Below, piece after piece: positions 200 to 14,487 of a stretch of 14,612 bases of DNA. Origin of the DNA: Bdellovibrionales bacterium (GTDB lineage: Bacteria; Bdellovibrionota; Bdellovibrionia; Bdellovibrionales; JAGQZY01); assembly GCA_031426555.1 (NCBI GenBank), contig JANPLN010000004.1, positions 1 to 14,612 of the forward strand, read 5' to 3'. Each line of letters starts with the position of its first letter. The stretch's first letter is position 1. The notes under the pieces were generated by a model. It searched no databases. It saw nothing but the letters and a program-made list of their open reading frames with translations, and was not told the DNA's origin. A program made the translations under genes and the position numbers.

Positions 200-1486
200 A
201 TGTATATGGTCTATAACAAATCTATTGCCCTCCTTGTTGGTTCTATTCTCTTTGGTTCCTTTGTCGGCTACGGAATGCTTTATTTTTCAGCAGGCAATGA
301 AACCTCGATCCAAGATTTAAAAACTCCTGACACAATTGTGGACCTTCCAGTCATTCCGCTCGAGGAAGAATTTCCCCATGTGATCCCGCCAAAATCCAGT
401 TTGTTTTTGGTGCTGCGTGAACTGGACGTAGAACCTCAGTTGATTCATGAAGTGGTGCAGGCCTCAAAGCCTGTCTATAATCTGTCTCGCATGCATCCTG
501 GAATTCGCTTTCAACTCAAATACGATTCCCTCAGTGGAACGCAGCTCACGCAAATTCAATTTCGTTTATCTGCCCTGGAAAAATTGACGTTAAAGCGCGA
601 GCCCACTGGTTGGCGCGCCGAAAAAACCATCGAACAAGTGGATATTCAGATTGTGCACTTTTCGGGGACTGTGAATTCAAGCTTGTGGGACTCCGCCGTG
701 AAAGCAGGAATGGATCCTGATCTGATTTCGGAGCTTGCAGATATCTTTGGCTGGGAAGTGGATTTCTCCCGCGAAGTTCGCGTGAATGATCGCTGGCGGC
801 TTTCGTTGGAGCAAAAGATAGTGAAGGGTCAACCCGTGGGCTGGGGTGCTATTTTAGCGGCGGAGTATATTAATAGCGGCGAAGTGCACCAAGCGGCTTT
901 GTTTCGCCTTGATAAAGAAGACCGCGGCTACTTCACACCTACAGGCCAGAGTTTGCGCAAAGTATTTTTAAAAAGCCCCATTCGCTATGGTCGCATCACA
1001 TCTGGTTTTAAGCGCCGACGCTTTCATCCCGTGCTGCAAATCTACCGCGCCCATCGAGGTGTGGATTACGGCGCACCCATCGGAACACCTGTACGCAGTG
1101 TGGGCGATGGCACCGTCATTTTTGCCGCCCGCAGTGGTGGCGGCGGCAATGTAATCAAAGTTCGCCACAATGCCACTTATCAAACGGCCTATAAACATTT
1201 AAATGGCTACGCCCGCGGCGTTCACAACGGCGCTCGCGTAAAACAAGGTCAAGTCATCGGTTTTGTAGGCAACACCGGAATGTCCACTGGTCCGCATTTG
1301 CATTTTGAATTTTATCAATCAGGAAACTACATCGATCCCCTTGGAAAAAGATTTCCTTCGGCAGAGCCTGTCCCCTCAGAGCATCTCACTTTTTTTAAAT
1401 CGTCGGCGGAGCGTTTATTAAAAACCCTGCCCGATTGGACGTCCAGTTCCATGAGCGCCGACAGACGGATGCCTTCGGAAATTTGA
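200..1486 (+). CDS. Peptidoglycan DD-metalloendopeptidase, M23 family (MepM/Csd3-like), N-terminal membrane anchor
   Basis: 428-aa ORF with hydrophobic N-terminus (IALLVGSILFGSFVGYGMLYF) and M23 zinc motifs HRGVDYG (HxxxD) and STGPHLHFE (HxH); typical RFHPVL and VKQGQVIGFVGNTG segments. The start may be ATG 206. Confidence 0.93.
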   Translation: MYMVYNKSIALLVGSILFGSFVGYGMLYFSAGNETSIQDLKTPDTIVDLPVIPLEEEFPHVIPPKSSLFLVLRELDVEPQLIHEVVQASKPVYNLSRMHPGIRFQLKYDSLSGTQLTQIQFRLSALEKLTLKREPTGWRAEKTIEQVDIQIVHFSGTVNSSLWDSAVKAGMDPDLISELADIFGWEVDFSREVRVNDRWRLSLEQKIVKGQPVGWGAILAAEYINSGEVHQAALFRLDKEDRGYFTPTGQSLRKVFLKSPIRYGRITSGFKRRRFHPVLQIYRAHRGVDYGAPIGTPVRSVGDGTVIFAARSGGGGNVIKVRHNATYQTAYKHLNGYARGVHNGARVKQGQVIGFVGNTGMSTGPHLHFEFYQSGNYIDPLGKRFPSAEPVPSEHLTFFKSSAERLLKTLPDWTSSSMSADRRMPSEI

Positions 1487-1643: not shown

Positions 1644-2963
1644 ATGAAACAATCAATTTTAAAAAAAACCGTCGCATGTTTAGTTATTTCATCTTTATTT
1701 ATTACTCTTTCAGCTTGCGACAGCGAACATAATGTCAAAAATAATAAGAGAACACTAGATACTGGCGCAATTTCAGCAAACTCGCAGCTTTCCAGCGAGG
1801 AAAAGGCTGAACGCCTAGCTCTGGCCGCCGAAGAGCTATTAACTCCAGATGGTTTTATTTATGCCACTGATGTTCTTGATGAAGCATTAAAACATGACTC
1901 CAATAACAAAAGAGCTCAACTCTATAGATCCTTGATGGAGCAAACACTCGCTCTCAAGGGAATTTTGAAGCGAGTCACACCTTTGATGAACCAATACCCT
2001 CACCTCAAAGAACAACACCAATTACAAGTAAAAAGTATGGAAAATACAACAGTGATGAACGCTTATCTCTTGGATGGTCAGGAGGATATAAAATCAGAAG
2101 AAGATGTTCAAACTTTTCTAGATAGTTTTTATGAAAAACAAGAAGCTTTTAGACAATTTTTAATTAAAAACAAGGATCTAGAAATCACATTAAACTACAG
2201 TGCGTGGCTCAAAGAAGTTTCTTACAACACCGAACAAAAATGTAAGGTCTTCAGAGCTCCGAACGGCCAGTTTGAGCTTTTTAACTGCGAAGACTACAAA
2301 CCAGTCAGTGTAAAATTAAATCGCGCCGATAATGAAACTTTGCAGCAGTATCTTGCGGGTGGACAGATCACCACAATCCTCGCGACAGCCTATAAAATCA
2401 ACGGTCTTGCACGACAGTTGGATATTGGCCTTGTTGCCAAAGCTTCTGCTCAGTCCATTGCGAGCAATCTTTTAGCTAACAGCGAATCCGCAGAACTCAG
2501 AAGTACAAATCGTCTTCTCAATGTATTAACTTTCGGTACAGACGGTATTGCCGCCATTCAATGGGCCAAATCATCACAGAAGTCATTATGTAACGACACT
2601 CACCCGGACTTACCAGAACGCCCTGGAATGCTATTTTTCGAAGGGCTCTGTTTATCTAAATACTCGCACCAGAAGAAAACAGCTCTCGATCAAATTAGTG
2701 CCACTGTGGCCTCAGCCATTTCGGGTCAGCATATTCTCGCCCGCAGCGGAACATTTGAAACTACTTTGAACCCAAATGTTTTAATCACTCAACCGATTCA
2801 AGATTTAAAGAAGCTCAAGCCGCGCTTTGATGTGTGTGATCAGCTTGTGAATGTTGACGACAAATCCGTGGGCGGCCTCTTTGTTAAAAAAGACGCTGTG
2901 GCCTACCTTACGGCTGTCAACAGCTACTGCGGCCCTGCTAACGGACGAAGCAATGCTCAATAA
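1644..2963 (+). CDS. Hypothetical lipoprotein with an N-terminal TPR-like helical segment and six Cys in the mature region
   Basis: 439 aa; SD AGGGGGAG; basic N-terminus, hydrophobic stretch and lipobox LSAC; TPR-like AEELL...ATDVLDEALKHDSNNKRAQLYRSLM. No catalytic motif recognised. Confidence 0.85.
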   Translation: MKQSILKKTVACLVISSLFITLSACDSEHNVKNNKRTLDTGAISANSQLSSEEKAERLALAAEELLTPDGFIYATDVLDEALKHDSNNKRAQLYRSLMEQTLALKGILKRVTPLMNQYPHLKEQHQLQVKSMENTTVMNAYLLDGQEDIKSEEDVQTFLDSFYEKQEAFRQFLIKNKDLEITLNYSAWLKEVSYNTEQKCKVFRAPNGQFELFNCEDYKPVSVKLNRADNETLQQYLAGGQITTILATAYKINGLARQLDIGLVAKASAQSIASNLLANSESAELRSTNRLLNVLTFGTDGIAAIQWAKSSQKSLCNDTHPDLPERPGMLFFEGLCLSKYSHQKKTALDQISATVASAISGQHILARSGTFETTLNPNVLITQPIQDLKKLKPRFDVCDQLVNVDDKSVGGLFVKKDAVAYLTAVNSYCGPANGRSNAQ

Positions 2964-3327
2964 AAAAATGTTTTTCATGGGAGCACCTCTTTTGGCGCTC
3001 CTTATTCCGTTAAAAGCCTTCGCTCTCACCTCCACTGGAGAAATTACTGGTTTTAAAATGAAATCCTGTGGCGAGTCCAAATGCTTCGCAGTCACTGCCG
3101 AAAAAATGAACGAAGGTCTTTTGGCTGGGAATTACTTTTCAAAAACCGCCAAATTTTCGGTAGAAAACAAGAACACTAAGAAAAAGATTATCGAGCTAGA
3201 AACACAAAGTTTATACTACGATAATATCCATAACTTCATTTACATTAAAGATGTGGTTGGTGAAAAGGCTCAGTACTCTTACGAGATTTCAACCGAGACT
3301 CTTCAACGCTTTCCATTAAAAAACTAA
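2953..3327 (+). CDS. Small secreted beta-rich hypothetical protein (124 aa), possibly LptC/OstA-like beta-jellyroll
   Basis: Start reassigned to ATG 2953 (MLNKKMFF...), overlapping the upstream stop by 11 nt. Sec signal ending in AFA; CGESKC pair; LETQSLYYDNIHNFIYIKDVV resembles Lpt-type beta strands (fold call is weak). Confidence 0.75.
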   Translation: MLNKKMFFMGAPLLALLIPLKAFALTSTGEITGFKMKSCGESKCFAVTAEKMNEGLLAGNYFSKTAKFSVENKNTKKKIIELETQSLYYDNIHNFIYIKDVVGEKAQYSYEISTETLQRFPLKN

Positions 3328-3390: not shown

Positions 3391-3828
3391 TTAGCGTCGC
3401 GGCTTCTGCCATGGCTTACTATGGTCAGCTTGATCATAGATGAGCATCTGATGGGCAATTGGCTTAAGATTCTCTTCGATATAGTCGCAGAATCCAACCA
3501 GCATCTTTGTGCTTCCTCGACCAATTTTCGAAAGACAATACTCAACTCGCGGGGGAATTTCGGGGTAACTCATGCGCTCTATGAAGCCGACTCTTTCGAG
3601 CCTTCGCAACGTTTGCGCTAACATTTTTTCTGATATGCCAGGCACAAGACGTTTTAGCTCGGCATTGCGCAAGACTTCGTTTTCACTAAGCGCACGTAAT
3701 ATCAAAAGACCCCAAAGTCCGGTCAGAGAATCGACGATCTCGCGGGCCGGGCAATTTTGATTCAACAAGTCACCCCGCTTAGGTAGCGACTTTAAGATAG
3801 TTTTTATTTTTCGATCATCTAATTTCAT
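3391..3828 (-). CDS. HxlR/DUF24-family winged-helix transcriptional regulator (YodB/HypR/QsrR-like, thiol/quinone sensing)
   Basis: Motifs CPAREIVDSLTGLWGLLIL, LKRLVPGISEKMLAQTLRRLE and YPEIPPRVEYCLSKIG. Start placed at ATG 3828 (MKLDD) with GAAGGG upstream. Divergent from azoR. Confidence 0.92.
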   Translation of the reverse strand: MKLDDRKIKTILKSLPKRGDLLNQNCPAREIVDSLTGLWGLLILRALSENEVLRNAELKRLVPGISEKMLAQTLRRLERVGFIERMSYPEIPPRVEYCLSKIGRGSTKMLVGFCDYIEENLKPIAHQMLIYDQADHSKPWQKPRR

Positions 3829-3882: not shown

Positions 3883-3923
3883 ATAGAACAACCCATCTTA
3901 TTAGTCTAGTGGAGGCAAAACTT

Positions 3924-4529
3924 ATGAAACCTATTCTCTTAATTCAGGCCAGCCCTCAGGGTGAACATTCACTGAGCCGGAAGATTGCTGGCGAATTTTT
4001 AAGTCAGTATGCGGTGCGCTTTGGTAAGAAGCCCGTAACAGAGCGCGATCTCACAAAAGATCCACTCCCCCATATCTCGGGCGAGTTTGTCGCTGCGATG
4101 TTCGTACCCCCCGAAAACCGTACCCCAGACATGGTAAAAACGCTAGCTCAAGGGAATCAGTTGGTTGACGAGCTGTTAGCTCACGACGAAATCTTTATTT
4201 CTACTCCGATGTATAACAACACTGTTCCATCTTCGCTAAAAGCATGGATCGACCATATAGTTTTACCGGGTCGAACATTTAACTTTGGGCCGAATGGGAT
4301 CAAAGGACTACTTGAGGGTAAAGTGCTGTATTTTATTTGCGCAACAGGCGACATGTATTCAACTGGGCCTCGCCAACACGAAGACTTTCTCACGCCATAC
4401 ATCAAGCAAATCATGGGTGTCATTGGGATAAAGGACGTGCGACCTATTTATGTCGAAGGTATAGTGCGCGATCGAGAAGCTGCTTTATCTAACGCGAGAA
4501 AGCATATTGAGTCTGCTCTGAAAGGTTAA
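3924..4529 (+). CDS. azoR: FMN-dependent NADH-azoreductase / quinone reductase (Flavodoxin_2 family)
   Basis: Motifs ILLIQASPQGEHSLSR, ERDL and LVDELLAHDEIFISTPMYNNTVPSSLKAWIDHI...GRTF. SD GGAGG at 3911-3915 supports ATG 3924 (201 aa). Confidence 0.9.
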   Translation: MKPILLIQASPQGEHSLSRKIAGEFLSQYAVRFGKKPVTERDLTKDPLPHISGEFVAAMFVPPENRTPDMVKTLAQGNQLVDELLAHDEIFISTPMYNNTVPSSLKAWIDHIVLPGRTFNFGPNGIKGLLEGKVLYFICATGDMYSTGPRQHEDFLTPYIKQIMGVIGIKDVRPIYVEGIVRDREAALSNARKHIESALKG

Positions 4530-4553: not shown

Positions 4554-4582
4554 TTAATACAGAAAATTAATACAGAAAATTA
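4554..4582. repeat. 13-bp tandem duplication abutting the purF stop codon
   Basis: TTAATACAGAAAA at 4554-4566 and 4567-4579, followed by TTA (4580-4582, the purF stop on the minus strand). Confidence 0.8.
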
Positions 4583-5953
4583 GTAAAGCGGCGTTGGATA
4601 CTCGCCACCAAAGCAGGCCGAGCAAAAGGTTTTTTCGGTTTCTGACTGCGACGCTTTGATCAACCCTTCGCTGGATACATAAGCTAAACTGTCGGCACCA
4701 ATAAAATCACAAATTTCTTTCACACTTTTATTGGCCGCGATCAGTTCGGTCTTTTGGGGTGTGTCCACACCGTAGTAGCAGGGGCTCACCGTGGGCGGCG
4801 CTGCAATCCGCATATGAACTTCTTTGGCTCCAAACTGGCGAATCAGTCCTACGATTTTTTTACTGGTGGTTCCGCGCACGATGGAATCATCCACCACGAT
4901 CACCCGCTTGCCTTTTAAAATTTCGGACTGCGGATTTAATTTGATCTTTACGCCAAAGTTACGAATGCTTTGTTTTGGTTCAATAAATGTTCGGCCCACA
5001 TAGTGGTTGCGAATAATACCCAACTCAAAAGGCAAACCACTGGCTTCGGCATACCCCAAAGCCGACGGCACTCCACTGTCTGGTACCGGAATCACGATAT
5101 CCGCATCGATGGGATTTTCCCGGGCCAGCTGGCGTCCGAGTTCTTTACGCACTTGATACACACTGCGACCAAAGACTTTCGAATCAGGTCTGGCAAAATA
5201 CACATATTCAAAAACGCAGGGTCGCTTGTTTGTGACTTCTTTAAACGTGGCAGTGTAAGCTCCCTTGTCGTCACACCAAAATATTTCTCCAGGGGCAATC
5301 TCGCGAACAAATTCCGCGCCGATGAGATCAAAGGCGCAGGTCTCTGAAGCCAAAACCCAGGCCGTCCCTGCTTCGTGTTTTAGTTTTCCCAGGACCAGCG
5401 GCCTAAAGCCATTGGCGTCGCGCATGCCAATCATCATATCGCGACTCAACATCGCCATGCTAAAGGCGCCTTCGAGCTTGGGCAGCTCTTGCTTTAAACA
5501 TTCTACAAGATCATTGCTCTCGTTTCGCGAAACCAAATGTAGTAAAATCTCTGTGTCGTTGGTTCCTTGAAAAATCGAACCTTTGGCTTGCAGCTCCCGG
5601 CGAAGCTTGGCGCTGTTGACGATGTTTCCGTTGTGCGCAAGCGACACCGGCCCGTTGTACAATACGGCCTTGAGGGGCTGGATATTAAAGCGCTCATTTT
5701 CACCGGTTGTGGAATATCGATTGTGCCCAATGGCCGCAAGACCCTTGAGGCGATCCAGAGCGGCTTCCTGAAACACATCGGCCACAAGACCAAAACCTTT
5801 ATGCTCGAGATGTTGGTTTTCGAAAAGGGAAACCACTCCTGAAGCTTCTTGCCCTCGATGCTGAAGAGCATAGAGACCCAGATAGGCCATTCGACTGGCT
5901 TCGGGATGGTTCCAGATTCCAAAGACCGCACACTCATCACGCCAGGTTTTCAA
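4580..5953 (-). CDS. purF: Amidophosphoribosyltransferase, propeptide / 4Fe-4S type
   Basis: TTG start with SD GGAGG. Propeptide MKTWRDE before nucleophile Cys (CAVFGI); LQHRGQE, GHNRYST, HNGN, PRPP loop VIVVDDSIVRGTT; cluster-type Cys in PCVFEYVY, PCYYGVD, FCSACF. Confidence 0.98.
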   Translation of the reverse strand: MKTWRDECAVFGIWNHPEASRMAYLGLYALQHRGQEASGVVSLFENQHLEHKGFGLVADVFQEAALDRLKGLAAIGHNRYSTTGENERFNIQPLKAVLYNGPVSLAHNGNIVNSAKLRRELQAKGSIFQGTNDTEILLHLVSRNESNDLVECLKQELPKLEGAFSMAMLSRDMMIGMRDANGFRPLVLGKLKHEAGTAWVLASETCAFDLIGAEFVREIAPGEIFWCDDKGAYTATFKEVTNKRPCVFEYVYFARPDSKVFGRSVYQVRKELGRQLARENPIDADIVIPVPDSGVPSALGYAEASGLPFELGIIRNHYVGRTFIEPKQSIRNFGVKIKLNPQSEILKGKRVIVVDDSIVRGTTSKKIVGLIRQFGAKEVHMRIAAPPTVSPCYYGVDTPQKTELIAANKSVKEICDFIGADSLAYVSSEGLIKASQSETEKTFCSACFGGEYPTPLY

Positions 5954-8105
5954 ATTGCGCCTCCCAAGATTTTTTATAGAGCTGATTTAAAACTTCGGAC
6001 TTCACTTTAAGATCAGCCCATACCAGTTCGTTTTTCTGAGTCTGGCCAATTTTTTGTATTTTTAGAGGTTTTAAACCCCACGACTGCACTTCTTTTTCGA
6101 GAGCGGCCGCATTTTTTGTGCTCACCACAATTTGATAGAGCGGCTCTACAAAATGATTTTGCGTCGACTCAATCCGTGCACCCATGCCATTTAAACTCAT
6201 GCGTGTAAGTGCGTATAGCAAACCAAACTTACTCACAATGCGAGCACTGCTTACAAGGTCACTGGTTCCAAGTTTTGTAAGTTCTTTTACAAATTGATCA
6301 AACCCTTGAGTTTCAAAATTTAAAAAGGCTTTCGGCGTCTTGTCGTTCATTTCAGCAAGCAGTCCTTCGGCCCAGCAATCGCCCCAGGTGAGCGTGTAAA
6401 TTTCTTCGCCCTCGGAAGCGAAAGCTGTGGTTGGAAGATTTTCCATCTTCGAGCGCAAACCAACAAGGCCCGTACTCGGCGTGGGCGAAATGTTTTTGGA
6501 TTTGGTCTCGTTATAAAAACTCACATTGCCGCTAATGATGGGCGCTTGCAGCTCACGGCACGCGCTGTTCATGCCGTCGAGAGCCGCCACAAACTGAGTC
6601 ATGGTTTCTGTTTTTTCTGGATTGCCAAAATTTAAGCAGTCGGTCACCGCCAAGGGCTCAAAGCCCATCACGGCGAGTTGTAAAGCGGGATGCAAAATAG
6701 AATCGCGCCCACCAAACTGCGGATCCAGCCGCATCATATGCGGCCGACAACCAAGCACCACACCCAGCGCACGCCCTGACTCTGGCAAACGCACCACACC
6801 AACAGGATCAGAGCAGTCCCGTGCTGTTGCGGCACCCACGCGTTGATCATACTGGCGATACACCCACTCACGACTTCCACCGTGCTCAGATTTTAAAATC
6901 GTCTCAAGAGTTTGCAACGTGTTGCCCCCATCTTGCGGGACAGCTTGCGGCTTTAAGTAAGGCGAATTGTATTTTTCAAAAGGGCGCTGGTACTGAGGCG
7001 CATGACTGACGATGGTTGCTGGATTGATGTCTGTGATCAATTCCATATTCCAAAACAGACGAACATTGGGCCCTTGAGTCACTTTGCCGATGACCGAAGC
7101 ATCGAGGCCCCAGCGCTCAAACACTTCTTGGAGAGGTTTTAATTTTGCGGGGTCGCAAATCAGCAGCATTCGCTCCTGGCTTTCCGAAAGCATAATATCT
7201 TCTGGTGTCAGGGTGGAATCGCGCAAAGGCACTTGATCCAAGTGCATATCAATGCCCACTTCGCCCTTTTCGGCCATTTCAAACGTCGAGCTGGTTAAAC
7301 CTGCGGCACCCATATCTTGAATGGCCACAACTAAATCTTTTTTCATCACTTCTAAACAGGCTTCGATCAAAAGTTTTTCAAAGAAGGGATCGCCGATTTG
7401 CACTGTTGGTCGTTTGGCGGCCGAGTTGTCGTCAAACGACTCACTGGCCATGCTGGCTCCATGAATCCCATCGCGACCGGTTTTTGCACCCACGTACACA
7501 ACCAAGGTGCCAACGCCTTTGGCCTTCGACAAACAGATGGGGTCGGCTTTGCCAAAGTAACCAACCGCCATGGCGTTGACCAAAATATTTTCGTTATAGG
7601 AGCTATGAAAGTGTGTTTGCCCAGTGATAGTTGGAACACCCACGCAGTTGCCGTAGCCACCGATGCCGCGTACCACACCATCGACAAGCGTTTCCATACG
7701 GTTGGCCTTGGGTTCGCCGAAGCAAAGGTAGTTCGCGAGTGCGATGGGCCGTGCGCCCATGGTAAAAATATCACGAAGAATTCCACCCACTCCAGTGGCA
7801 GCCCCTTGGTAGGGCTCGATGAAGCTTGGGTGATTATGGCTTTCCATTTTAAAAGCAATCTTTTCGCCCTGGCCAAGATCTACAATCCCGGCGTTCTCAC
7901 CAAAACTTTGCAGCACTCGGGGTGACTGGCTAAAAAGCTGCTTGAGGTGAATTTTAGAACTTTTGTAACTGCAGTGTTCACTCCATAGCGCCGAGAAAAG
8001 CGCCCATTCTAAGCCTTTTGGATCGCGACCCAAGAGTTTTTGAATCTGTGCATACTCGTCTTGATTCAATCGATACAGTTTTAGTTTTATTTGTAATTCA
8101 GTCAT
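5937..8105 (-). CDS. purL: Phosphoribosylformylglycinamidine synthase subunit PurL (small type)
   Basis: WSEHCSYKSS, KMESHNHPS, PYQGAATGVGGILRDI, IQDMGAAGL, SESQERM, TDCLNFGNPE, GNVSFYNE. Confidence 0.98.
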   Translation of the reverse strand: MTELQIKLKLYRLNQDEYAQIQKLLGRDPKGLEWALFSALWSEHCSYKSSKIHLKQLFSQSPRVLQSFGENAGIVDLGQGEKIAFKMESHNHPSFIEPYQGAATGVGGILRDIFTMGARPIALANYLCFGEPKANRMETLVDGVVRGIGGYGNCVGVPTITGQTHFHSSYNENILVNAMAVGYFGKADPICLSKAKGVGTLVVYVGAKTGRDGIHGASMASESFDDNSAAKRPTVQIGDPFFEKLLIEACLEVMKKDLVVAIQDMGAAGLTSSTFEMAEKGEVGIDMHLDQVPLRDSTLTPEDIMLSESQERMLLICDPAKLKPLQEVFERWGLDASVIGKVTQGPNVRLFWNMELITDINPATIVSHAPQYQRPFEKYNSPYLKPQAVPQDGGNTLQTLETILKSEHGGSREWVYRQYDQRVGAATARDCSDPVGVVRLPESGRALGVVLGCRPHMMRLDPQFGGRDSILHPALQLAVMGFEPLAVTDCLNFGNPEKTETMTQFVAALDGMNSACRELQAPIISGNVSFYNETKSKNISPTPSTGLVGLRSKMENLPTTAFASEGEEIYTLTWGDCWAEGLLAEMNDKTPKAFLNFETQGFDQFVKELTKLGTSDLVSSARIVSKFGLLYALTRMSLNGMGARIESTQNHFVEPLYQIVVSTKNAAALEKEVQSWGLKPLKIQKIGQTQKNELVWADLKVKSEVLNQLYKKSWEAQFENLA

Positions 8106-8107
8106 TT

Positions 8108-8758
8108 TTAATTCCTAAAATAAAGTTGACCATCGCTGCTTCCCATCCACTCATAAATAGCACGCTCTGGGTGTGGCATCATGGCGACGACATTTTTTTT
8201 GGCGTTCATCACACCGGCAATATTTCCTGCTGACCCATTGGGATTGGCTACGTATGTGCAATACACCTGATCGTTATCTTGAATTTTTTTAAGCTCATCA
8301 TCCGTCACAAAATACCTGCCATCAGCGTGGGCGATGGGCATGCGCGACTTTTGATTTTTCTTTAGTTTTAAACCAAACCTTTTATGGGAATTTTGCGTTT
8401 CAATCTCAATCATTTGATCAATAAAGCGAAGTCCCGCGTTGCGCATCAAAGCCCCTGGCAGCAGCCCGGCTTCGCAAAGGATTTGAAAACCATTGCAGAC
8501 GCCAAAAATAGGATAGCCTTTTTCGGCGGCCGTGCGGAGAGAATCCATGGCCGGAGCGTGAGCAGCGAGGGCCCCCGAGCGTAGATAGTCTCCGTAGCTA
8601 AAGCCACCGGGTATAACAAACCCATCATAGTCTTCGACGTTGAAGGTATCTTGATGCCACAAAAATGTAGGTTTGGCGCCACTCCACTCGACGGCTTTGT
8701 AGATGTCCCAATCGCAATTCGTTCCGGGGAATCGCAACACGCCAATTTTGTCGCTCAC
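8108..8758 (-). CDS. purQ: FGAM synthase glutaminase subunit PurQ
   Basis: FPGTNCD, PGGFSYGDYLRSGA, GVCNGFQIL (catalytic Cys), NPNGS, MMPHPER. GTG start overlaps the purS stop (GTGA). Confidence 0.98.
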   Translation of the reverse strand: MSDKIGVLRFPGTNCDWDIYKAVEWSGAKPTFLWHQDTFNVEDYDGFVIPGGFSYGDYLRSGALAAHAPAMDSLRTAAEKGYPIFGVCNGFQILCEAGLLPGALMRNAGLRFIDQMIEIETQNSHKRFGLKLKKNQKSRMPIAHADGRYFVTDDELKKIQDNDQVYCTYVANPNGSAGNIAGVMNAKKNVVAMMPHPERAIYEWMGSSDGQLYFRN

Positions 8759-8997
8759 GGCAACTCCTCAATCTGAAACGTTTCAATGAGCGTATTGCAA
8801 AGAAGATCTTCCGAAATTTTTGTCGCTTGAGCGCGGGCGTGGGCTGGAGACTCGCCTTCGATCTGCAAAATAACAAACTTTCCAACTTTGCAGTCCATCA
8901 CTTGAAAGCCCTTGGACTTCAACGTCATGCCCACAGCGCGACCTTGGGTATCAAGCACTTCAGCTCTCGGCATGATTCGTACACCTATTTTATACAT
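8755..8997 (-). CDS. purS: FGAM synthase subunit PurS
   Basis: 80 aa from ATG 8997 (GGAG upstream); VLDTQGRAV, VGK, LLCNTLIETF match the PurS DPxG...GK...LLxNPVIE pattern; lies between purC and purQ. Confidence 0.95.
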   Translation of the reverse strand: MYKIGVRIMPRAEVLDTQGRAVGMTLKSKGFQVMDCKVGKFVILQIEGESPAHARAQATKISEDLLCNTLIETFQIEELP

Positions 8998-9727
8998 ATT
9001 GACTCCATTTGTTTTGAATTCTGTTCCAAACATCTTGGTATTTTTCTTTTACCTGCCCGAGATCTCGGCGAAAGCGATCTTTGTCTAATTTTTCGTTCGT
9101 CGCTTCATCCCACAGACGACAGCTATCGGGAGAGATTTCGTCGCCTAAAACGATTTCGCCTTTTTCGTTTTTCCCAAACTCTAATTTAAAATCCACAAGC
9201 TTGATTCCGCAGGTTGCGAAAAAGGATTTTAGTGCTTCATTTACTTTTAAGCCCAAGGTCTTCAGCTCATCCAGTTCCGCTTGTGAGTCCACGGTTTTTA
9301 AAAACAGCGCCTGGTCGTCGCTAATAAAGGGGTCTGCCAGTTCGTCTTTTTTATAATAAAACTCTACAAGGGCTTTGCTCATGCTCGAGCCTTCGGGGAT
9401 ACCTAACTTTTTTGCAGTGGATCCCGCCATGATATTGCGAACCACAACTTCCAGGGGAATCATGGTCAGCTTTGTGGTGACAAGAGAGGTGCTTGAGAGT
9501 TTCTCCACAAAGTGCGTGGGCACTCCTTTGTCAGCCAAGAATTTAAAGATGCTAGTTGTGATAAGGCAATTCAGTTCGCCTTTTCCTTCGAGTTCTTCTT
9601 TTTTCAGCGCATTGAAGGCCGTGAGTTGATTTTTAAACTCTTGCAGAACAAAACCGTCCTTGCCCTTTAAGGCAAAAATACGTTTTGCTTTGCCGTCGTA
9701 AAGCTGTTCGGCTTTTAGCCACGTCAT
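8990..9727 (-). CDS. purC: SAICAR synthetase
   Basis: LYDGKAK, IPLEVVVRN..AGS, LVDFKLEFG, DEISPDSCRLWD, LDKDRFRRDLG. Confidence 0.98.
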   Translation of the reverse strand: MTWLKAEQLYDGKAKRIFALKGKDGFVLQEFKNQLTAFNALKKEELEGKGELNCLITTSIFKFLADKGVPTHFVEKLSSTSLVTTKLTMIPLEVVVRNIMAGSTAKKLGIPEGSSMSKALVEFYYKKDELADPFISDDQALFLKTVDSQAELDELKTLGLKVNEALKSFFATCGIKLVDFKLEFGKNEKGEIVLGDEISPDSCRLWDEATNEKLDKDRFRRDLGQVKEKYQDVWNRIQNKWSQYV

Positions 9728-11019
9728 AGTTCACCTCTCAAAGTTTCAAATATTTTTCGCGTTTGTAAAATATGTCTTTCGCCAGAAAAGATGGAATCCA
9801 AAGTTTTGGCGTCGAAGTATTTTTTGGTATCGGGATTCGTGCTCAATTTTTCTTTCAGCTGCTCGCCGGGTTTCAACTGATGGCTGGCACTTTGTACTAA
9901 TTTGTATCCATCTTCGCGGGAAAGTCCTTGGTCTACCAGATGCAACAGCAAGTGCGAACTGAACAACTGACCTTGCGATAAATTCATATTCGCCAGCATC
10001 TGCTCTTTGTTCACCTGCAGCTGACTGAGCATTGTGGCCAAACGATCACAGGCGTAGTCGGCGAGAATAAAACTGTCGGGAAAAATCACTCGCTCCACTG
10101 AGGAATGGGAAATATCTCGCTCGTGCCAGAGAGCCACATTTTCCAGCGCGGAGAGCGCGTAGGACCTTAGCAGTCGTGCACAGCCGGTGAGGTTTTCGGC
10201 ACCGATGGGATTCTTTTTGTGAGGCATCGCACTGGAGCCTTTCTGCCCCGGCGAAAATCCTTCTTGCACTTCATTCACTTCGGTTCGCTGAAGATGGCGG
10301 ATCTCTGTAGCCAATCGTTCAAGCCCCGTGCCCAACATCGCAAGAGCTGTGAGCACCTCGGCATGACGATCTCTGGGGATCACTTGGGTAGCCACAGTTT
10401 CCTGCTGCAGACCTAAACGCGCGCTCACCTGTTTTTCCAAGTCGGGAGTCAAAAACGAATAGGTGCCCACTGCCCCACTCAGTTTACAAATCGCCATTTG
10501 CTGTAATGCCTGTTCGACTCGTTTTTTATTGCGAAGGGCCTCGTAATAATACCCCGCCATCTTGTAACCAAACGTGGTTGGCTCGGCGTGCATTCCGTGG
10601 GTGCGACCACTGCAAAGTGTTTTTTCGTTATCAATGGCGATTTTTTTAAGTGCCGCTAAAAGTTTATTTACGGACTTTAAAAGCACCACACCTGCGCGCT
10701 GAATTTGCACACTCAAAGCCGTGTCTAAAACATCCGAGCTTGTTAAACCGTAATGCACGTAACGACCTTCGGGTCCGATGTTTTCGGCCATGTTGCTCAC
10801 AAAGGCGATCACATCGTGGCGAGTTTCTTTTTCGATTTCTAAAATGCGATCGTACTGGATGGCCGCTTTCTCAGAAATCTTGGCAGCAGCGTCTTTGGGT
10901 ATCAACCCCATTTCACCTTGAACAAGGGCGACAGCCACCTCCACCTGCATCATGTTTTCAAAACGCGACTGCGGCGTCCAAAGATCACCCATTTCTTTTC
11001 GCGTGTAACGATCAACCAT
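9724..11019 (-). CDS. purB: Adenylosuccinate lyase
   Basis: RHDVIAF, HYGLTSSDVLDTA, GRTHGMHAEPTTFG, fumarase-family signature GSSAMPHKKNP, WHERDISHSSVER. Confidence 0.98.
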   Translation of the reverse strand: MVDRYTRKEMGDLWTPQSRFENMMQVEVAVALVQGEMGLIPKDAAAKISEKAAIQYDRILEIEKETRHDVIAFVSNMAENIGPEGRYVHYGLTSSDVLDTALSVQIQRAGVVLLKSVNKLLAALKKIAIDNEKTLCSGRTHGMHAEPTTFGYKMAGYYYEALRNKKRVEQALQQMAICKLSGAVGTYSFLTPDLEKQVSARLGLQQETVATQVIPRDRHAEVLTALAMLGTGLERLATEIRHLQRTEVNEVQEGFSPGQKGSSAMPHKKNPIGAENLTGCARLLRSYALSALENVALWHERDISHSSVERVIFPDSFILADYACDRLATMLSQLQVNKEQMLANMNLSQGQLFSSHLLLHLVDQGLSREDGYKLVQSASHQLKPGEQLKEKLSTNPDTKKYFDAKTLDSIFSGERHILQTRKIFETLRGEL

Positions 11020-12112
11020 GCAGTTTTCCTTCTTTTAAACTTTGTACGATTAAATTTTGCAAAGCCCAATAGGTCGAAAAAAAGAAATCATTCACTTTTT
11101 CTGTGCCAACGTAAAAAAGCCCATCCACATACCAGGAGGACTGGGTTTCCCAGGCCACGGGATCATAAATTGGAAAGAGCGAATAAAAGTTTTCCGATAG
11201 CAGCTCCCGAGGCTTTTGCACGCAAGTTATAGTCTCGGCATTGAACTTGGTTTTCAGCTCGGCCGTGATTTTTTCCTGAACCTTGTTGAAATAGGTTTCT
11301 TTTTGATGAAAATCAAAATAGGAGCGAAACCACACATCAAAAACATTTTTATTCTTATCTTTATGCAAGACTAAAAAGTTTTGTTCGATCCAGGGATCTT
11401 CGGCGCGAGGAACTAGCAACGTTCGCTGTGGCATTTTTTGCAAACAGGCAGAGGTCTCAATCTGAACTTGCACCTTTTGCCAGCAAAGACGTGGCCGCAA
11501 TGTTTCACCGCGCACCAACGCCGCCATTCCCTCATCATAGAAGGGCGCCATCTCATAAGAGTTTAGAAAAAAAACAAAGAACGGCGCAGACCATTCTTTT
11601 TCATTGATCTGAATTGATTTTTTATCGCGATTGATCTGCAAGCGCACATGGTCTTCGGGTAACAAACTAATCCCGCGAACTTTCGGGCCGGTGGCCGAAA
11701 GCGTCCAGTAGTCGTGCACAGGATTGAACGGTTGTTCCATCTCCGCCCATTTCGAGCGTGGCCAATCCATTTTTGAAGTTAAATTTTTAAAAAGACTTTC
11801 CACCCATTTTTCATTTTGAAAAAACTGCGATACGCGAAACGGACCTTGTGCTTCAAAGGTGCCAAAATCCGACCACGCACTCCAACCCGCAGGCTGCAAA
11901 TTCTTTTCGTAGTTTTGGTCAATCCAGGTGCGTAAATTGTCGTGAATTTTTTCTTCGCCAAAAAGCCCAAAGGGACCCGACATTTCAGCATCAGATCTTT
12001 CGCCAAGTTTTTCCGACCAGTCAAGCACTTGCACGTTCTTGCCCATGGAAGAGAGCTGATCGATCAACCAGTCTCCGCGGTGAAAAGCGTTGATCACAAT
12101 CACGTCATGCAT
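11012..12112 (-). CDS. Uncharacterised protein (orfX, 366 aa) inside the pur operon; degenerate FAD/Rossmann-fold-like, Trp-rich
   Basis: Start at ATG 12112 (SD GGAGGGAG; 8-nt overlap ATGCATGA with the purN stop); stop overlaps the purB start (ATGGTTGA). The N-terminus DVIVINAFHRGDWLIDQLSSMGKNVQVLDWSEKLG mimics a beta-alpha-beta dinucleotide-binding motif without GxGxxG. Confidence 0.85.
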   Translation of the reverse strand: MHDVIVINAFHRGDWLIDQLSSMGKNVQVLDWSEKLGERSDAEMSGPFGLFGEEKIHDNLRTWIDQNYEKNLQPAGWSAWSDFGTFEAQGPFRVSQFFQNEKWVESLFKNLTSKMDWPRSKWAEMEQPFNPVHDYWTLSATGPKVRGISLLPEDHVRLQINRDKKSIQINEKEWSAPFFVFFLNSYEMAPFYDEGMAALVRGETLRPRLCWQKVQVQIETSACLQKMPQRTLLVPRAEDPWIEQNFLVLHKDKNKNVFDVWFRSYFDFHQKETYFNKVQEKITAELKTKFNAETITCVQKPRELLSENFYSLFPIYDPVAWETQSSWYVDGLFYVGTEKVNDFFFSTYWALQNLIVQSLKEGKLHG

Positions 12113-12650
12113 AGGCTCCCTCCACAGCCCGTCGAACCAGTGCATACTCAGCTTGATGCATCATTTGTTCGGCAGACTTAAAACTGATTTTTTTAACCAC
12201 GTCTTTAGGCACAATCGTTTTCTGCAAGACCACGTGTCCTGCATCGACTTGCTCATTCACGTGGTGAACGGTGATTCCCATGTCCGCCCCGTCTTGATAA
12301 GCGCGCTCCATGCTTTTTAAGCCTGGGTAGTGCGGCAACAGGCTTGGATGAACATTCAGAATCACACCTGTCCAAGAGTTTAAAAATTCTGGCGGCACAA
12401 TTTTCATAAAACCTAAAAGAAAAACATGAGTGATTTGTAAACGCTCAAGCTCGGCACCTAGTTTTTGCCAATGGATTTTTGCATCGAGCACCAACGTTGG
12501 CACGCCACTTCGCCGAGCGCGCTTTAAGCCCTGGGCCTTGGGCGACGACGACACGACCAAGGCAACATCGAGATCCCATTTTTGGTCCAGCAGCGCCGAC
12601 ATGTTGGACCCCTGTCCCGAAATAAAGAGGGCCCAACGCGCTTTCGTCAC
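12105..12650 (-). CDS. purN: Phosphoribosylglycinamide formyltransferase
   Basis: FISGQGSNM phosphate loop, GFMKIV, catalytic LNVHPSLLP and GITVHHVNEQVDAG. GTG start overlaps the purM stop. Confidence 0.96.
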   Translation of the reverse strand: MTKARWALFISGQGSNMSALLDQKWDLDVALVVSSSPKAQGLKRARRSGVPTLVLDAKIHWQKLGAELERLQITHVFLLGFMKIVPPEFLNSWTGVILNVHPSLLPHYPGLKSMERAYQDGADMGITVHHVNEQVDAGHVVLQKTIVPKDVVKKISFKSAEQMMHQAEYALVRRAVEGAYA

Positions 12651-13633
12651 TTCTCCCCCGGATAAAAGAGCGGGGTGGAGTTTTTCACTACAACTCCGAG
12701 ATCGTAGTATTTAAACCCGTGTTTTTGTATGGTGTCGGAAAAAGCCTGGCGCTGATCTGCAGAGCCAACAATCGTCAAACCGATTCCACAGTTCAACGTT
12801 CCGAGCATTTGTTTTTTGGTCATCCCTGTGCGCTTTTGCACTTCCAAAAACGGCTCGGGCCACGACCAATCCTTAAGACTAATGGATAAGCCCTCAGGAA
12901 GGATGCGCGGAATATTTTCCATTCCGCTTCCGGTAATATGCGCCACTGCGTGAACACCTTGCTTTTGCAAATCGAGAACGAGATTTGTATAGAGTGCGGT
13001 GGGTTCGAGAAGTTCTTTTTTCCATTTGTCTAAATCGTTTTCGAAAACTTTTCTTAAAAGCGAAAATCCATTGCTGTGAAAACCACTGCTCGCCACGCCA
13101 ATGACAATGTCGTTTTCCTGCACACGATGGGAGCCTAAAATCTGCGGACGGTCCACCACTCCCACAGCAAATCCAGCACAGTCAAAATCCCGACCATGAT
13201 AAACACCAGGCATCTCGGCAGTCTCCCCACCAATGAGCTGAGCACCCACTTCGATGCAGGCTTTGCGAACACCCGCCAAAAATGGCCGAGCCTGTTCGAG
13301 CTCTAACTTACCCGTGGCGAAATAATCTAAAAAGAAAAGGGGCTTTGCTCCACAGCACGCAAGGTCGTTCACACACATGGCCACCAAATCTTGGCCAATG
13401 AAGTTGTACTCGTTAAAATGAACGGCGATTTTTAATTTTGTGCCCACACCATCGGTGCCGCTTACAATGCAGGGTTCTTTGTACTCGGGAAAATCAAAAC
13501 GCATGATGGAGGCAAAGCCGCCAACGCCAGAAATCATTTTGTCATCGAGGGGGCCTTTAACGTGGGTTTCCTGGATCCAATCGACAAGTTGGTCGCCTTT
13601 TTCAACATCGACCCCTGCGGATTTGTAATCCAT
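12647..13633 (-). CDS. purM: AIR synthetase (phosphoribosylformylglycinamidine cyclo-ligase)
   Basis: MDYKSAGVD, TDGVGTKL, DLVAMCVND, PLFFLDY, LIGGETAEMPG, SSGFHSNGFSL, AHITG, NCGIG; SD GGGAG upstream. Confidence 0.98.
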   Translation of the reverse strand: MDYKSAGVDVEKGDQLVDWIQETHVKGPLDDKMISGVGGFASIMRFDFPEYKEPCIVSGTDGVGTKLKIAVHFNEYNFIGQDLVAMCVNDLACCGAKPLFFLDYFATGKLELEQARPFLAGVRKACIEVGAQLIGGETAEMPGVYHGRDFDCAGFAVGVVDRPQILGSHRVQENDIVIGVASSGFHSNGFSLLRKVFENDLDKWKKELLEPTALYTNLVLDLQKQGVHAVAHITGSGMENIPRILPEGLSISLKDWSWPEPFLEVQKRTGMTKKQMLGTLNCGIGLTIVGSADQRQAFSDTIQKHGFKYYDLGVVVKNSTPLFYPGEK

Positions 13634-13752: not shown

Positions 13753-14487
13753 ATGCTGAAAAATGCTCTGATTTTCCTTATGCTTACTCTGTCTCTAGCG
13801 ACCAGTTTTGCACAAACGGGCGACAGCGATATCACGGGAGACGACGCCTACGACCCCTTTGCCGATTATAGCGAATTTGAAGCTTCGGCCGACGAAGAAG
13901 CCGACATTCACTTCTTTAAAAATGGGCGCTTTTTTAACTTAGCCCTGCTTTTAGGACCACAAATGTTCACCGAGGCCCTGGGCGAATATAACAATATCGC
14001 ACCTGCCTATGGAATCTACTTTGCCTACTTTTTCGATATTCGCACGGCCCTGCAGGTCACTTACATCAGCAGCTCCCACGATTTTAACGTTCCTGCCACG
14101 GCGATTTCAAATCCCATTAATGGAACAACCAGTTTATCGACCTTTTCTGTACACATGAAGTACTACTTCAATACCCAAAACATCACGCGCGGTTTTGCCG
14201 ACCTCAATCCCTACCTCATTGGCGGTTTTGGATCTTCCCAGCGAAGCATCGCCATTATAAATCAAACGGCGGTGGCCAAGAGCAGCCCCACCGGCGTCGA
14301 ATTCGGCGGCGGCCTCGAAGTCCCCATCTCGCGAAATAAAATGTATTTAGGCGCCCAAATCATGTACCACTACGTTCAGTTCTCCGACGAAAACATGATG
14401 CTCGCCGATGAAAACCGAAACCCCACCGGCGTCACCTTGAACGGCGACTACATCACCGGCCTCTTCGTCCTCGGAATCAACTTCTAG
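13753..14487 (+). CDS. Outer-membrane beta-barrel protein (small, probably about 8-stranded) with an acidic N-terminal extension
   Basis: Sec signal ending in SFA; amphipathic strands YGIYFAYFF, FSVHMKYYF, NPYLIGGFG, GVEFGGGLEV, YLGAQIMYHYV; C-terminal BAM-type signal LFVLGINF. Confidence 0.88.
   Translation: MLKNALIFLMLTLSLATSFAQTGDSDITGDDAYDPFADYSEFEASADEEADIHFFKNGRFFNLALLLGPQMFTEALGEYNNIAPAYGIYFAYFFDIRTALQVTYISSSHDFNVPATAISNPINGTTSLSTFSVHMKYYFNTQNITRGFADLNPYLIGGFGSSQRSIAIINQTAVAKSSPTGVEFGGGLEVPISRNKMYLGAQIMYHYVQFSDENMMLADENRNPTGVTLNGDYITGLFVLGINF

Follow-up and report, generated by a model that had tools for sequence, protein, structure and literature searches.

The open reading frame lying between purN and purB in the purine operon of this Bdellovibrionales bacterium (orfX) is a conserved gene whose product has the predicted fold of CrtI-type carotenoid desaturases, with the FAD-binding glycines replaced. 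We tentatively favor, with somewhat less than even confidence, the reading that it is a catalytically dead binding protein (an adaptor or carrier) with a housekeeping role independent of de novo purine synthesis. orfX is best read as representing an unannotated and undescribed family of pseudo-flavoenzymes, no description of which was found in a literature search that included main texts for the locus tags Bd1946-Bd1950 and had most subscription papers outside its reach. What is defined here is an unannotated, near-core protein family of Bdellovibrionales, one member of which (Bd1948 of Bdellovibrio bacteriovorus) is expressed and non-essential in a genetically tractable model. Should the loss of FAD be confirmed, this would be one of the rare cases in bacteria of a pseudo-enzyme from a large superfamily of flavoproteins, with intermediate stages of the decay still extant (canonical loop, SAFGRG, NAFHRG, no loop), and the automatic label 'FAD-dependent oxidoreductase' would be corrected. 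Even a gene tied into a pur operon through overlaps need not act in the pathway. The window, by which we mean the whole 14,612-nucleotide stretch that was analysed, carries the operon in the order purM-purN-orfX-purB-purC-purS-purQ-purL-purF [Table 1].

Table 1. Features of the window (positions counted from its first nucleotide).
Feature	Positions	Strand	Remarks
orfX	11012..12112	-	366 aa; predicted CrtI/amine-oxidase fold, degenerate FAD loop
Shine-Dalgarno GGAGG	12119..12123	-	6 nt ahead of orfX ATG, within purN coding sequence
NAFHRG, orfX codons 8-13	12074..12091	-	GxGxxG position; Arg12 conserved in 95% of family
GPFG, orfX codons 46-49	11966..11977	-	Top motif of N-terminal half, 93/99/94/96%
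GLFYVGTE, orfX codons 331-338	11099..11122	-	C-terminal GLYLxG position; Glu338 is E or D in 96%
purM	12647..13633	-	TIGR00878 over cut-off
purN	12105..12650	-	TIGR00639 136.7 bits, slightly under cut-off of 150.1; 8-nt overlap with orfX
purB	9724..11019	-	Adenylosuccinate lyase; 8-nt overlap with orfX stop
purC	8990..9727	-	
purS	8755..8997	-	Pfam PurS over cut-off; both other models below cut-off or partial
purQ	8108..8758	-	
purL	5937..8105	-	
purF	4580..5953	-	
Outer-membrane beta-barrel ORF	13753..14487	+	44% identity to Bdellovibrio protein two genes before orfX
Flavodoxin_2 ORF	3909..4529	+	Azoreductase-like; just past purF, divergent from HxlR ORF
HxlR regulator ORF	3391..3828	-	Divergent from Flavodoxin_2 ORF
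123-aa ORF	2956..3327	+	Overlaps 439-aa ORF; without Pfam or NCBIfam match
439-aa ORF	1644..2963	+	Lipoprotein-like start; without Pfam or NCBIfam match
M23 peptidase	200..1486		

The features from which the sequence-only reading had started are all seen in the sequence: the stop-free translation of 12112-11012, with 16 Trp residues, a strong Shine-Dalgarno sequence, and the overlaps with purN (ATGCATGA) and, at the stop end, with purB (ATGGTTGA), which would couple the translation of orfX to that of purB. A longer in-frame start at an ATG at 12145 was rejected, the homologues beginning at 12112. Compared with its counterpart in genome G003, orfX has a dN of 0.022 and a dS of 0.709 (dN/dS about 0.03), indicative of purifying selection; the corresponding values are 0.081 and 0.532 for purN and 0.013 and 0.745 for purB, placing the dN of orfX below that of purN and close to that of purB. 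Pairs of Bdellovibrio orthologues of orfX give dN values of 0.012-0.113 at dS values of 0.97-2.4. Because of this ratio against G003 and of the 183 representative relatives retrieved by phmmer at E<=0.001, we consider orfX a real, conserved and selected gene and not a chance ORF. It has no Pfam match at E<=1 and no NCBIfam match. An Rfam search of the window returned no match, and promoter-like and terminator-like sites occur in it only at chance level.

The amine oxidase/phytoene desaturase fold guessed at in the sequence-only reading is borne out by structure prediction. The AlphaFold model of orfX (pLDDT 93.2, pTM 0.91) best matches the gamma-carotenoid desaturase 4REP (Z 18.5, rmsd 3.8, 350 residues aligned), followed by rice PDS (Z 17.5) and then by amine oxidases and protoporphyrinogen oxidases. 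The model of a full-length Bdellovibrio family member (pLDDT 96.4) has the same top two matches (Z 18.9 for 4REP and 18.1), and in both models the predicted two-domain fold, FAD-binding plus substrate-binding, is matched across the whole chain. Foldseek ranked amine oxidases first for the orfX model (E about 5e-11), and the language-model features of the ESM Atlas pointed to the same families (0.96-0.97). At the level of profiles, the best match of the family to PDB sequences had an E-value of only 0.09; the profile of the sister family matched 4REP at E 8e-5 and a JGI phytoene desaturase at E 7e-9. The register of the landmarks was taken from a global profile alignment forced against three canonical flavoproteins, with the JGI-named phytoene desaturase as lead sequence (probability 95%), in which NAFHRG falls on GSGIGG, D31 on the Glu of beta2, EKLGER on DRPGGY, EWSAPFFVFFLNS on KIDAPLVVSNAD and VDGLFYVGTE on IEGLFLAGHW, so that the degenerate landmarks picked out earlier by eye are indeed collinear with those of flavoproteins. 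A shifted register of the loop was rejected, as the spacing of helix and strand sets N8-A-F-H-R-G13 on GxGxxG.

A profile of 145 sequences matched 72 of 301 genomes of the phylum, nearly all in the order to which the window belongs and almost always in single copy; genus g25 has a match in 21 of 21 genomes. The family is also present in all six genomes of the sister order, always as purM-purN-X-purB-purC (X standing for the orfX relative), and a family referred to here as Y occurs in 66 of 81 genomes of another class. Two clusters in the ESM Atlas, from Myxococcota (465 aa) and Thermodesulfobacteriota (480 aa), provide leads outside the phylum. Profile scores over about 400 columns are 98.3% between X and distant Y and 99.1% between the sister order and distant Y, to be read against the scores with the three canonical controls, which are 95.9% for X and 93.5% for the sister order but 99.7% for distant Y. 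A quick tree gave the X clade a support of 99, with G224 deepest, and left X, Y and the purN-linked proteins unseparated from the three canonical controls. From gene position and the profile scores of 98-99%, orthology of orfX with the proteins of other classes is likely. Most members are about 430 aa long; the orfX lineage is without about 65 aa of a helical domain between residues 102 and 103. Across lineages protein length falls from about 530 to 430, 366 and finally 306-327 aa, the shortest being eroded copies of genus g15 (L054, L055, L058, L060, L061, L268, L269, L272), which lie at the same place, have no trace of the loop motif and in several cases were found by a g15 profile alone.

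The degeneracy of the dinucleotide-binding loop, noted at the outset for orfX itself, holds family-wide. In an alignment of 145 sequences (A2; fragments, some of the long rows and P0114, a spurious match with 7482 aa of repeats, were left out), one of 143 rows has a canonical GxGxxG loop, and the commonest reading is SAFGRG; the first glycine is kept in 4 of these rows, the middle one in 1 and the last (as Gly or Ala) in 124, and Phe or Tyr replaces the middle Gly in 87% of the family. A bulky residue at this middle position blocks the pyrophosphate. The C-terminal glycine-rich motif that contacts the flavin is lacking as well, GLFYVGTEKVNDFFF aligning on GLFLAGHWTRPGGGI with a family consensus of GPExWxxLDW, and the Pfam models Amino_oxidase, NAD_binding_8 and DAO gave no score over cut-off for orfX or the relatives scanned. 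P0149 carries the full FAD fingerprint, and some Bdellovibrio members are titled 'FAD-dependent oxidoreductase' in UniRef. The acid at the end of beta2, D31 in orfX, is Asp or Glu in 143 of 145 sequences, and outside the loop conservation is highest at GPFG, G76, G84, L183, E187, W211, P228, W241, N245 and W261. In the sister order the loops, compared by eye, read GSGFRG, GSHHRG, GTSFRG, GSGLRG, GSNHRG and GEGFRG (canonical in 3/6 genomes, with the Arg in 6/6 and the beta2 acid in 2/6). Family Y has loops of the type GDHPGA, none of them canonical among the 95 of 100 sequences that fitted the pattern, and 78 of these 95 have Pro for the beta2 acid; further lineages show GKALPG, SYGIGS, GNDILA and GDxxPEG. 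This lineage-by-lineage difference in the decay of the loop suggests that selection is maintaining something other than canonical FAD binding, and the product of orfX is likely to lack FAD and hence to be a non-catalytic binding protein.

These same residues bear on an alternative that we regard as doubtful, namely that orfX is still a flavoenzyme (an oxidoreductase or isomerase) binding FAD or FMN at a remodeled site where Arg12 would take over the contacts of the glycines with the phosphates. The conserved Arg, Asp and GPFG would leave room for such a site, and the retention of the whole predicted two-domain fold, the strength of purifying selection, the conservation of Glu338 and the occurrence of a canonical GxGxxG together with the same Arg in half of the sister-order genomes are all consistent with it; it is harder to reconcile with the aromatic residue at the middle Gly, with degenerate loops that differ by lineage, with the loss of the acid in family Y, with the large deletions, or with the absence of any loop in genus g15. 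Under the reading of orfX as a dead binder, there would be neither FAD nor redox chemistry, and function would have shifted to the substrate-side domain, where conservation peaks (G46-P-F-G49, W211, P228, P240-W241, N245, W261). By analogy with Rab-GDI/REP proteins, a hydrophobic ligand or a partner might then be held on the flavoprotein scaffold.

Three known systems invite comparison. CrtI-type desaturases (4REP, 4DGK and the plant PDS 5MOG) and phytoene-dehydrogenase-like proteins come out on top structurally for both models (4REP and 5MOG at Z 17.5-18.9) and have landmarks collinear with those of orfX, whereas orfX has neither GxGxxG nor the C-terminal glycine-rich flavin loop, is 60-130 residues shorter, shares 9-13% identity with them, has no Pfam match and lies in loci in which, among those read, there are no carotenoid genes; judged by its motifs, orfX falls outside the CrtI enzymes. 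Flavin amine oxidases and protoporphyrinogen oxidases (Pfam Amino_oxidase; 3NG7, 6CR0, 1SEZ, 2IVD; Z 16-17) share the superfamily fold, but orfX is without their FAD fingerprint and below any Pfam score. Rab-GDI and REP proteins are non-catalytic binders. Their invocation in the sequence-only reading as a precedent stands as a structural parallel, the Bdellovibrio model matching REP-1 (1LTX) at Z 14.5 and GDI (1UKV) at E 2.9e-11; they nonetheless rank far below CrtI proteins (rank 47 among the best 50 matches, against Z 18.9 for 4REP). The GDI Pfam family PF00996 did not match orfX and matched one distant relative below cut-off (E 0.006), over its first 40 residues. With this Pfam family unmatched and CrtI proteins as the closest structures, the relationship of orfX to GDI/REP is one of analogy and not of membership.

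The conserved order purN-orfX-purB anticipated from the window was recovered in both orders of the class. Directly behind orfX lies purB in 84 of 87 loci (some genomes counted twice), overlapping it in 77, the exceptions being one protein of another class and two contig ends. The gene upstream varies (purN, purM, a glutathione peroxidase, an outer-membrane gene, or a divergent waaF or waaA), and orfX stays beside purB after other pur genes leave the locus. Further afield, the family-Y class has the order waaF-waaA-(hotdog)-Y-(GT4)-purB, with waaA preceding the relative in 29 of 30 loci and purB no more than two genes downstream in 23 of 30; in family f24, waaA precedes the relative in 10 of 10 loci and purB is not behind it. 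A related protein follows purM-purN in f22 (6 genomes), f15 (2/2), f25 and f17 (1 each), and the arrangements purM-purN-X-waaF-waaA (G043) and purN-X-argS-waaF-waaA (f15, 2 genomes) also occur. In f15, f17, f22, f24 and f25 purB is not the next gene, and the PurB of f22 is of a distant type (26-30% identical); the loci read in f16, f18, f19 and f21 have no orfX relative beside purN or purB. Within Bdellovibrionales orfX keeps to purB and not to waaA/waaF, which in the genome of the window lie on another contig. No neighbor is constant across distant relatives, and with genes of purine, LPS, tRNA-synthetase and thioesterase-fold type side by side in the old neighborhood, location is a poor guide to function. 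The place of orfX among pur genes may be an inheritance from a mixed operon of purM, purN, purB, waaF, waaA, a hotdog-fold gene, a GT4 gene and argS, and the old link with waaF-waaA makes envelope or lipid metabolism the leading, if weak, candidate process.

Presence and absence of the gene set it apart from the de novo pathway. As purD, purE, purK, purH and purA all score over cut-off in the genome of the window, no purine step is missing there, contrary to the proposal that orfX might replace one. Searches for purF in 85 genomes found it in 79 of 80 genomes of one set and 3 of 5 of another, leaving three without it; purM was searched in 5. Two of these genomes, G031 (one contig, 98% complete) and G025 (98%), have no match for purM, purF, purE or purH and no purD over cut-off, yet keep an intact orfX (E 4e-110 and 1.6e-139), and G060 (100%, one contig), without purF, keeps an eroded copy. 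Genomes without the de novo genes retain purA and purB. In G099, a Bdellovibrio, the de novo cluster lies about 1 Mb from orfX. Conversely, of the 12 genomes of genus g4 the orfX profile matched only one (G012), with the reservation that the same profile missed five eroded g15 copies and a relocated, eroded g4 copy is possible; in none of the other 11, which keep purB and purF, does orfX precede purB, and 8 have purN directly before purB. G176 has lost orfX and, like g4, keeps purB. Because these gains and losses run independently of the de novo genes, orfX is likely not a step of purine synthesis; nor is the proposed scaffold for PurSQL/PurF supported, since orfX persists in genomes where these genes are absent or distant and is missing from others that have them.

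Published data are available for the Bdellovibrio genes assigned to orfX by gene order. Bd1948 of B. bacteriovorus HD100 (Q6MLQ9; CAE79798.1, uncharacterized) is a family member that precedes purB, as orfX does, and aligns with it in two local matches (34% and 25%), but is 434 aa long, has the loop SAFGRG and no purM or purN upstream. In the accessible part of a Tn-seq study in strain 109J, EP01_RS05675, located between a glutathione peroxidase gene and purB, has fitness values of 1.48, 1.16, 1.73 and 1.09 under four predation conditions and is outside the essential list (PMC6561027). Because purB is itself dispensable in that screen, which used rich medium plus prey, the screen is silent on purine auxotrophy. 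In the portion of a proteome study available to us, Bd1948 is represented by 19 peptides and is level across the predatory cycle (log2 5.58-5.83), PurB is level as well (log2 7.10-7.17), and PurF (Bd3009) falls about 16-fold (FC 0.06 at 2 h) (PMC12546842). Since Bd1948 stays level while PurF falls, orfX does not appear from these data to be co-regulated with PurF.

That orfX might be a non-catalytic sensor or regulator acting at the IMP/AMP level, where it would bind a purine nucleotide through Arg12 and Asp31 and act on PurB in both salvage and de novo synthesis, strikes us as improbable. The constancy of purB behind orfX and their frequent overlap, its staying with purB once other pur genes leave, the retention of purA and purB in genomes without the de novo genes, the level amounts of Bd1948 and PurB in the available proteome data and the proximity of purB in the family-Y class would all agree with such a role; retention beside an overlapping gene can however be passive, purB is not the next gene in five families, one of them with a distant PurB, and g4 and G176 have purB without orfX. 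A joint complex prediction of orfX, PurB and PurN scored 0.00, which is no answer and counts neither way. Bolder, and in our estimate less probable again, is a scenario in which orfX would belong to an ancient line of pseudo-flavoenzymes of predatory Bdellovibrionota, derived from CrtI, in which FAD was lost repeatedly in parallel and which became the bacterial equivalent of Rab-GDI/REP adaptors. In Bdellovibrionales it would read a purine nucleotide through an Arg-rebuilt phosphate loop and tune the adenylosuccinate lyase with which it is co-translated, as the cell alternates between synthesizing purines and obtaining them from prey. That orfX is a component of de novo purine synthesis, whether as a replacement for a missing step or as a scaffold, is very improbable. 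The gene does lie within the pur operon in both orders of this class and immediately follows purN in four additional families, but its distribution largely refutes such a role: the genome of the window has every step; two genomes lacking the pathway have an intact copy, and a third, lacking purF, an eroded one; one Bdellovibrio genome has it about 1 Mb away from the de novo cluster; and in genus g4 the search missed it in 11 of 12 genomes, although these have purF. Nor does it show co-regulation with PurF in the proteome data at hand.

Several other observations were made in passing. In seven genomes (G099, G238, G037, G164, G290, G244 and G176), purF is separated from purB and has a weaker score (E 1e-114 to 1e-131, compared with about 1e-155); this displacement and lower score suggest that the pur cluster of these genomes was replaced from outside. 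A second, weaker PurD-like ATP-grasp ORF was seen at G000:C31:46399-47418 (E 2e-30) and also in G016. The PurN of family f15 (L233:6114-7070, L234:6322-7266) is 314-318 aa long, about 120 residues over the usual size. A hotdog-fold (4HBT) gene (L155:5125-5511, L236:6028-6474) accompanies this neighborhood, standing between waaA and Y in one class and, in family f18, ahead of purM at a place without an orfX relative. Where purC to purF are gone from the locus, as at L073:9530-13012, the genes that come next after orfX-purB encode an S66 LD-carboxypeptidase, a serine hydrolase and Mpl; in the accessible part of the Tn-seq supplement, the S66 gene has zero transposon insertions, although the upstream orfX and purB had some (PMC6561027). 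In most of the order the outer-membrane beta-barrel gene runs divergently from purM or orfX, and its Bdellovibrio counterpart (Bd1946/EP01_RS05665) is required for predation, with fitness values of 0.006-0.055 in the accessible part of the same study (PMC6561027).
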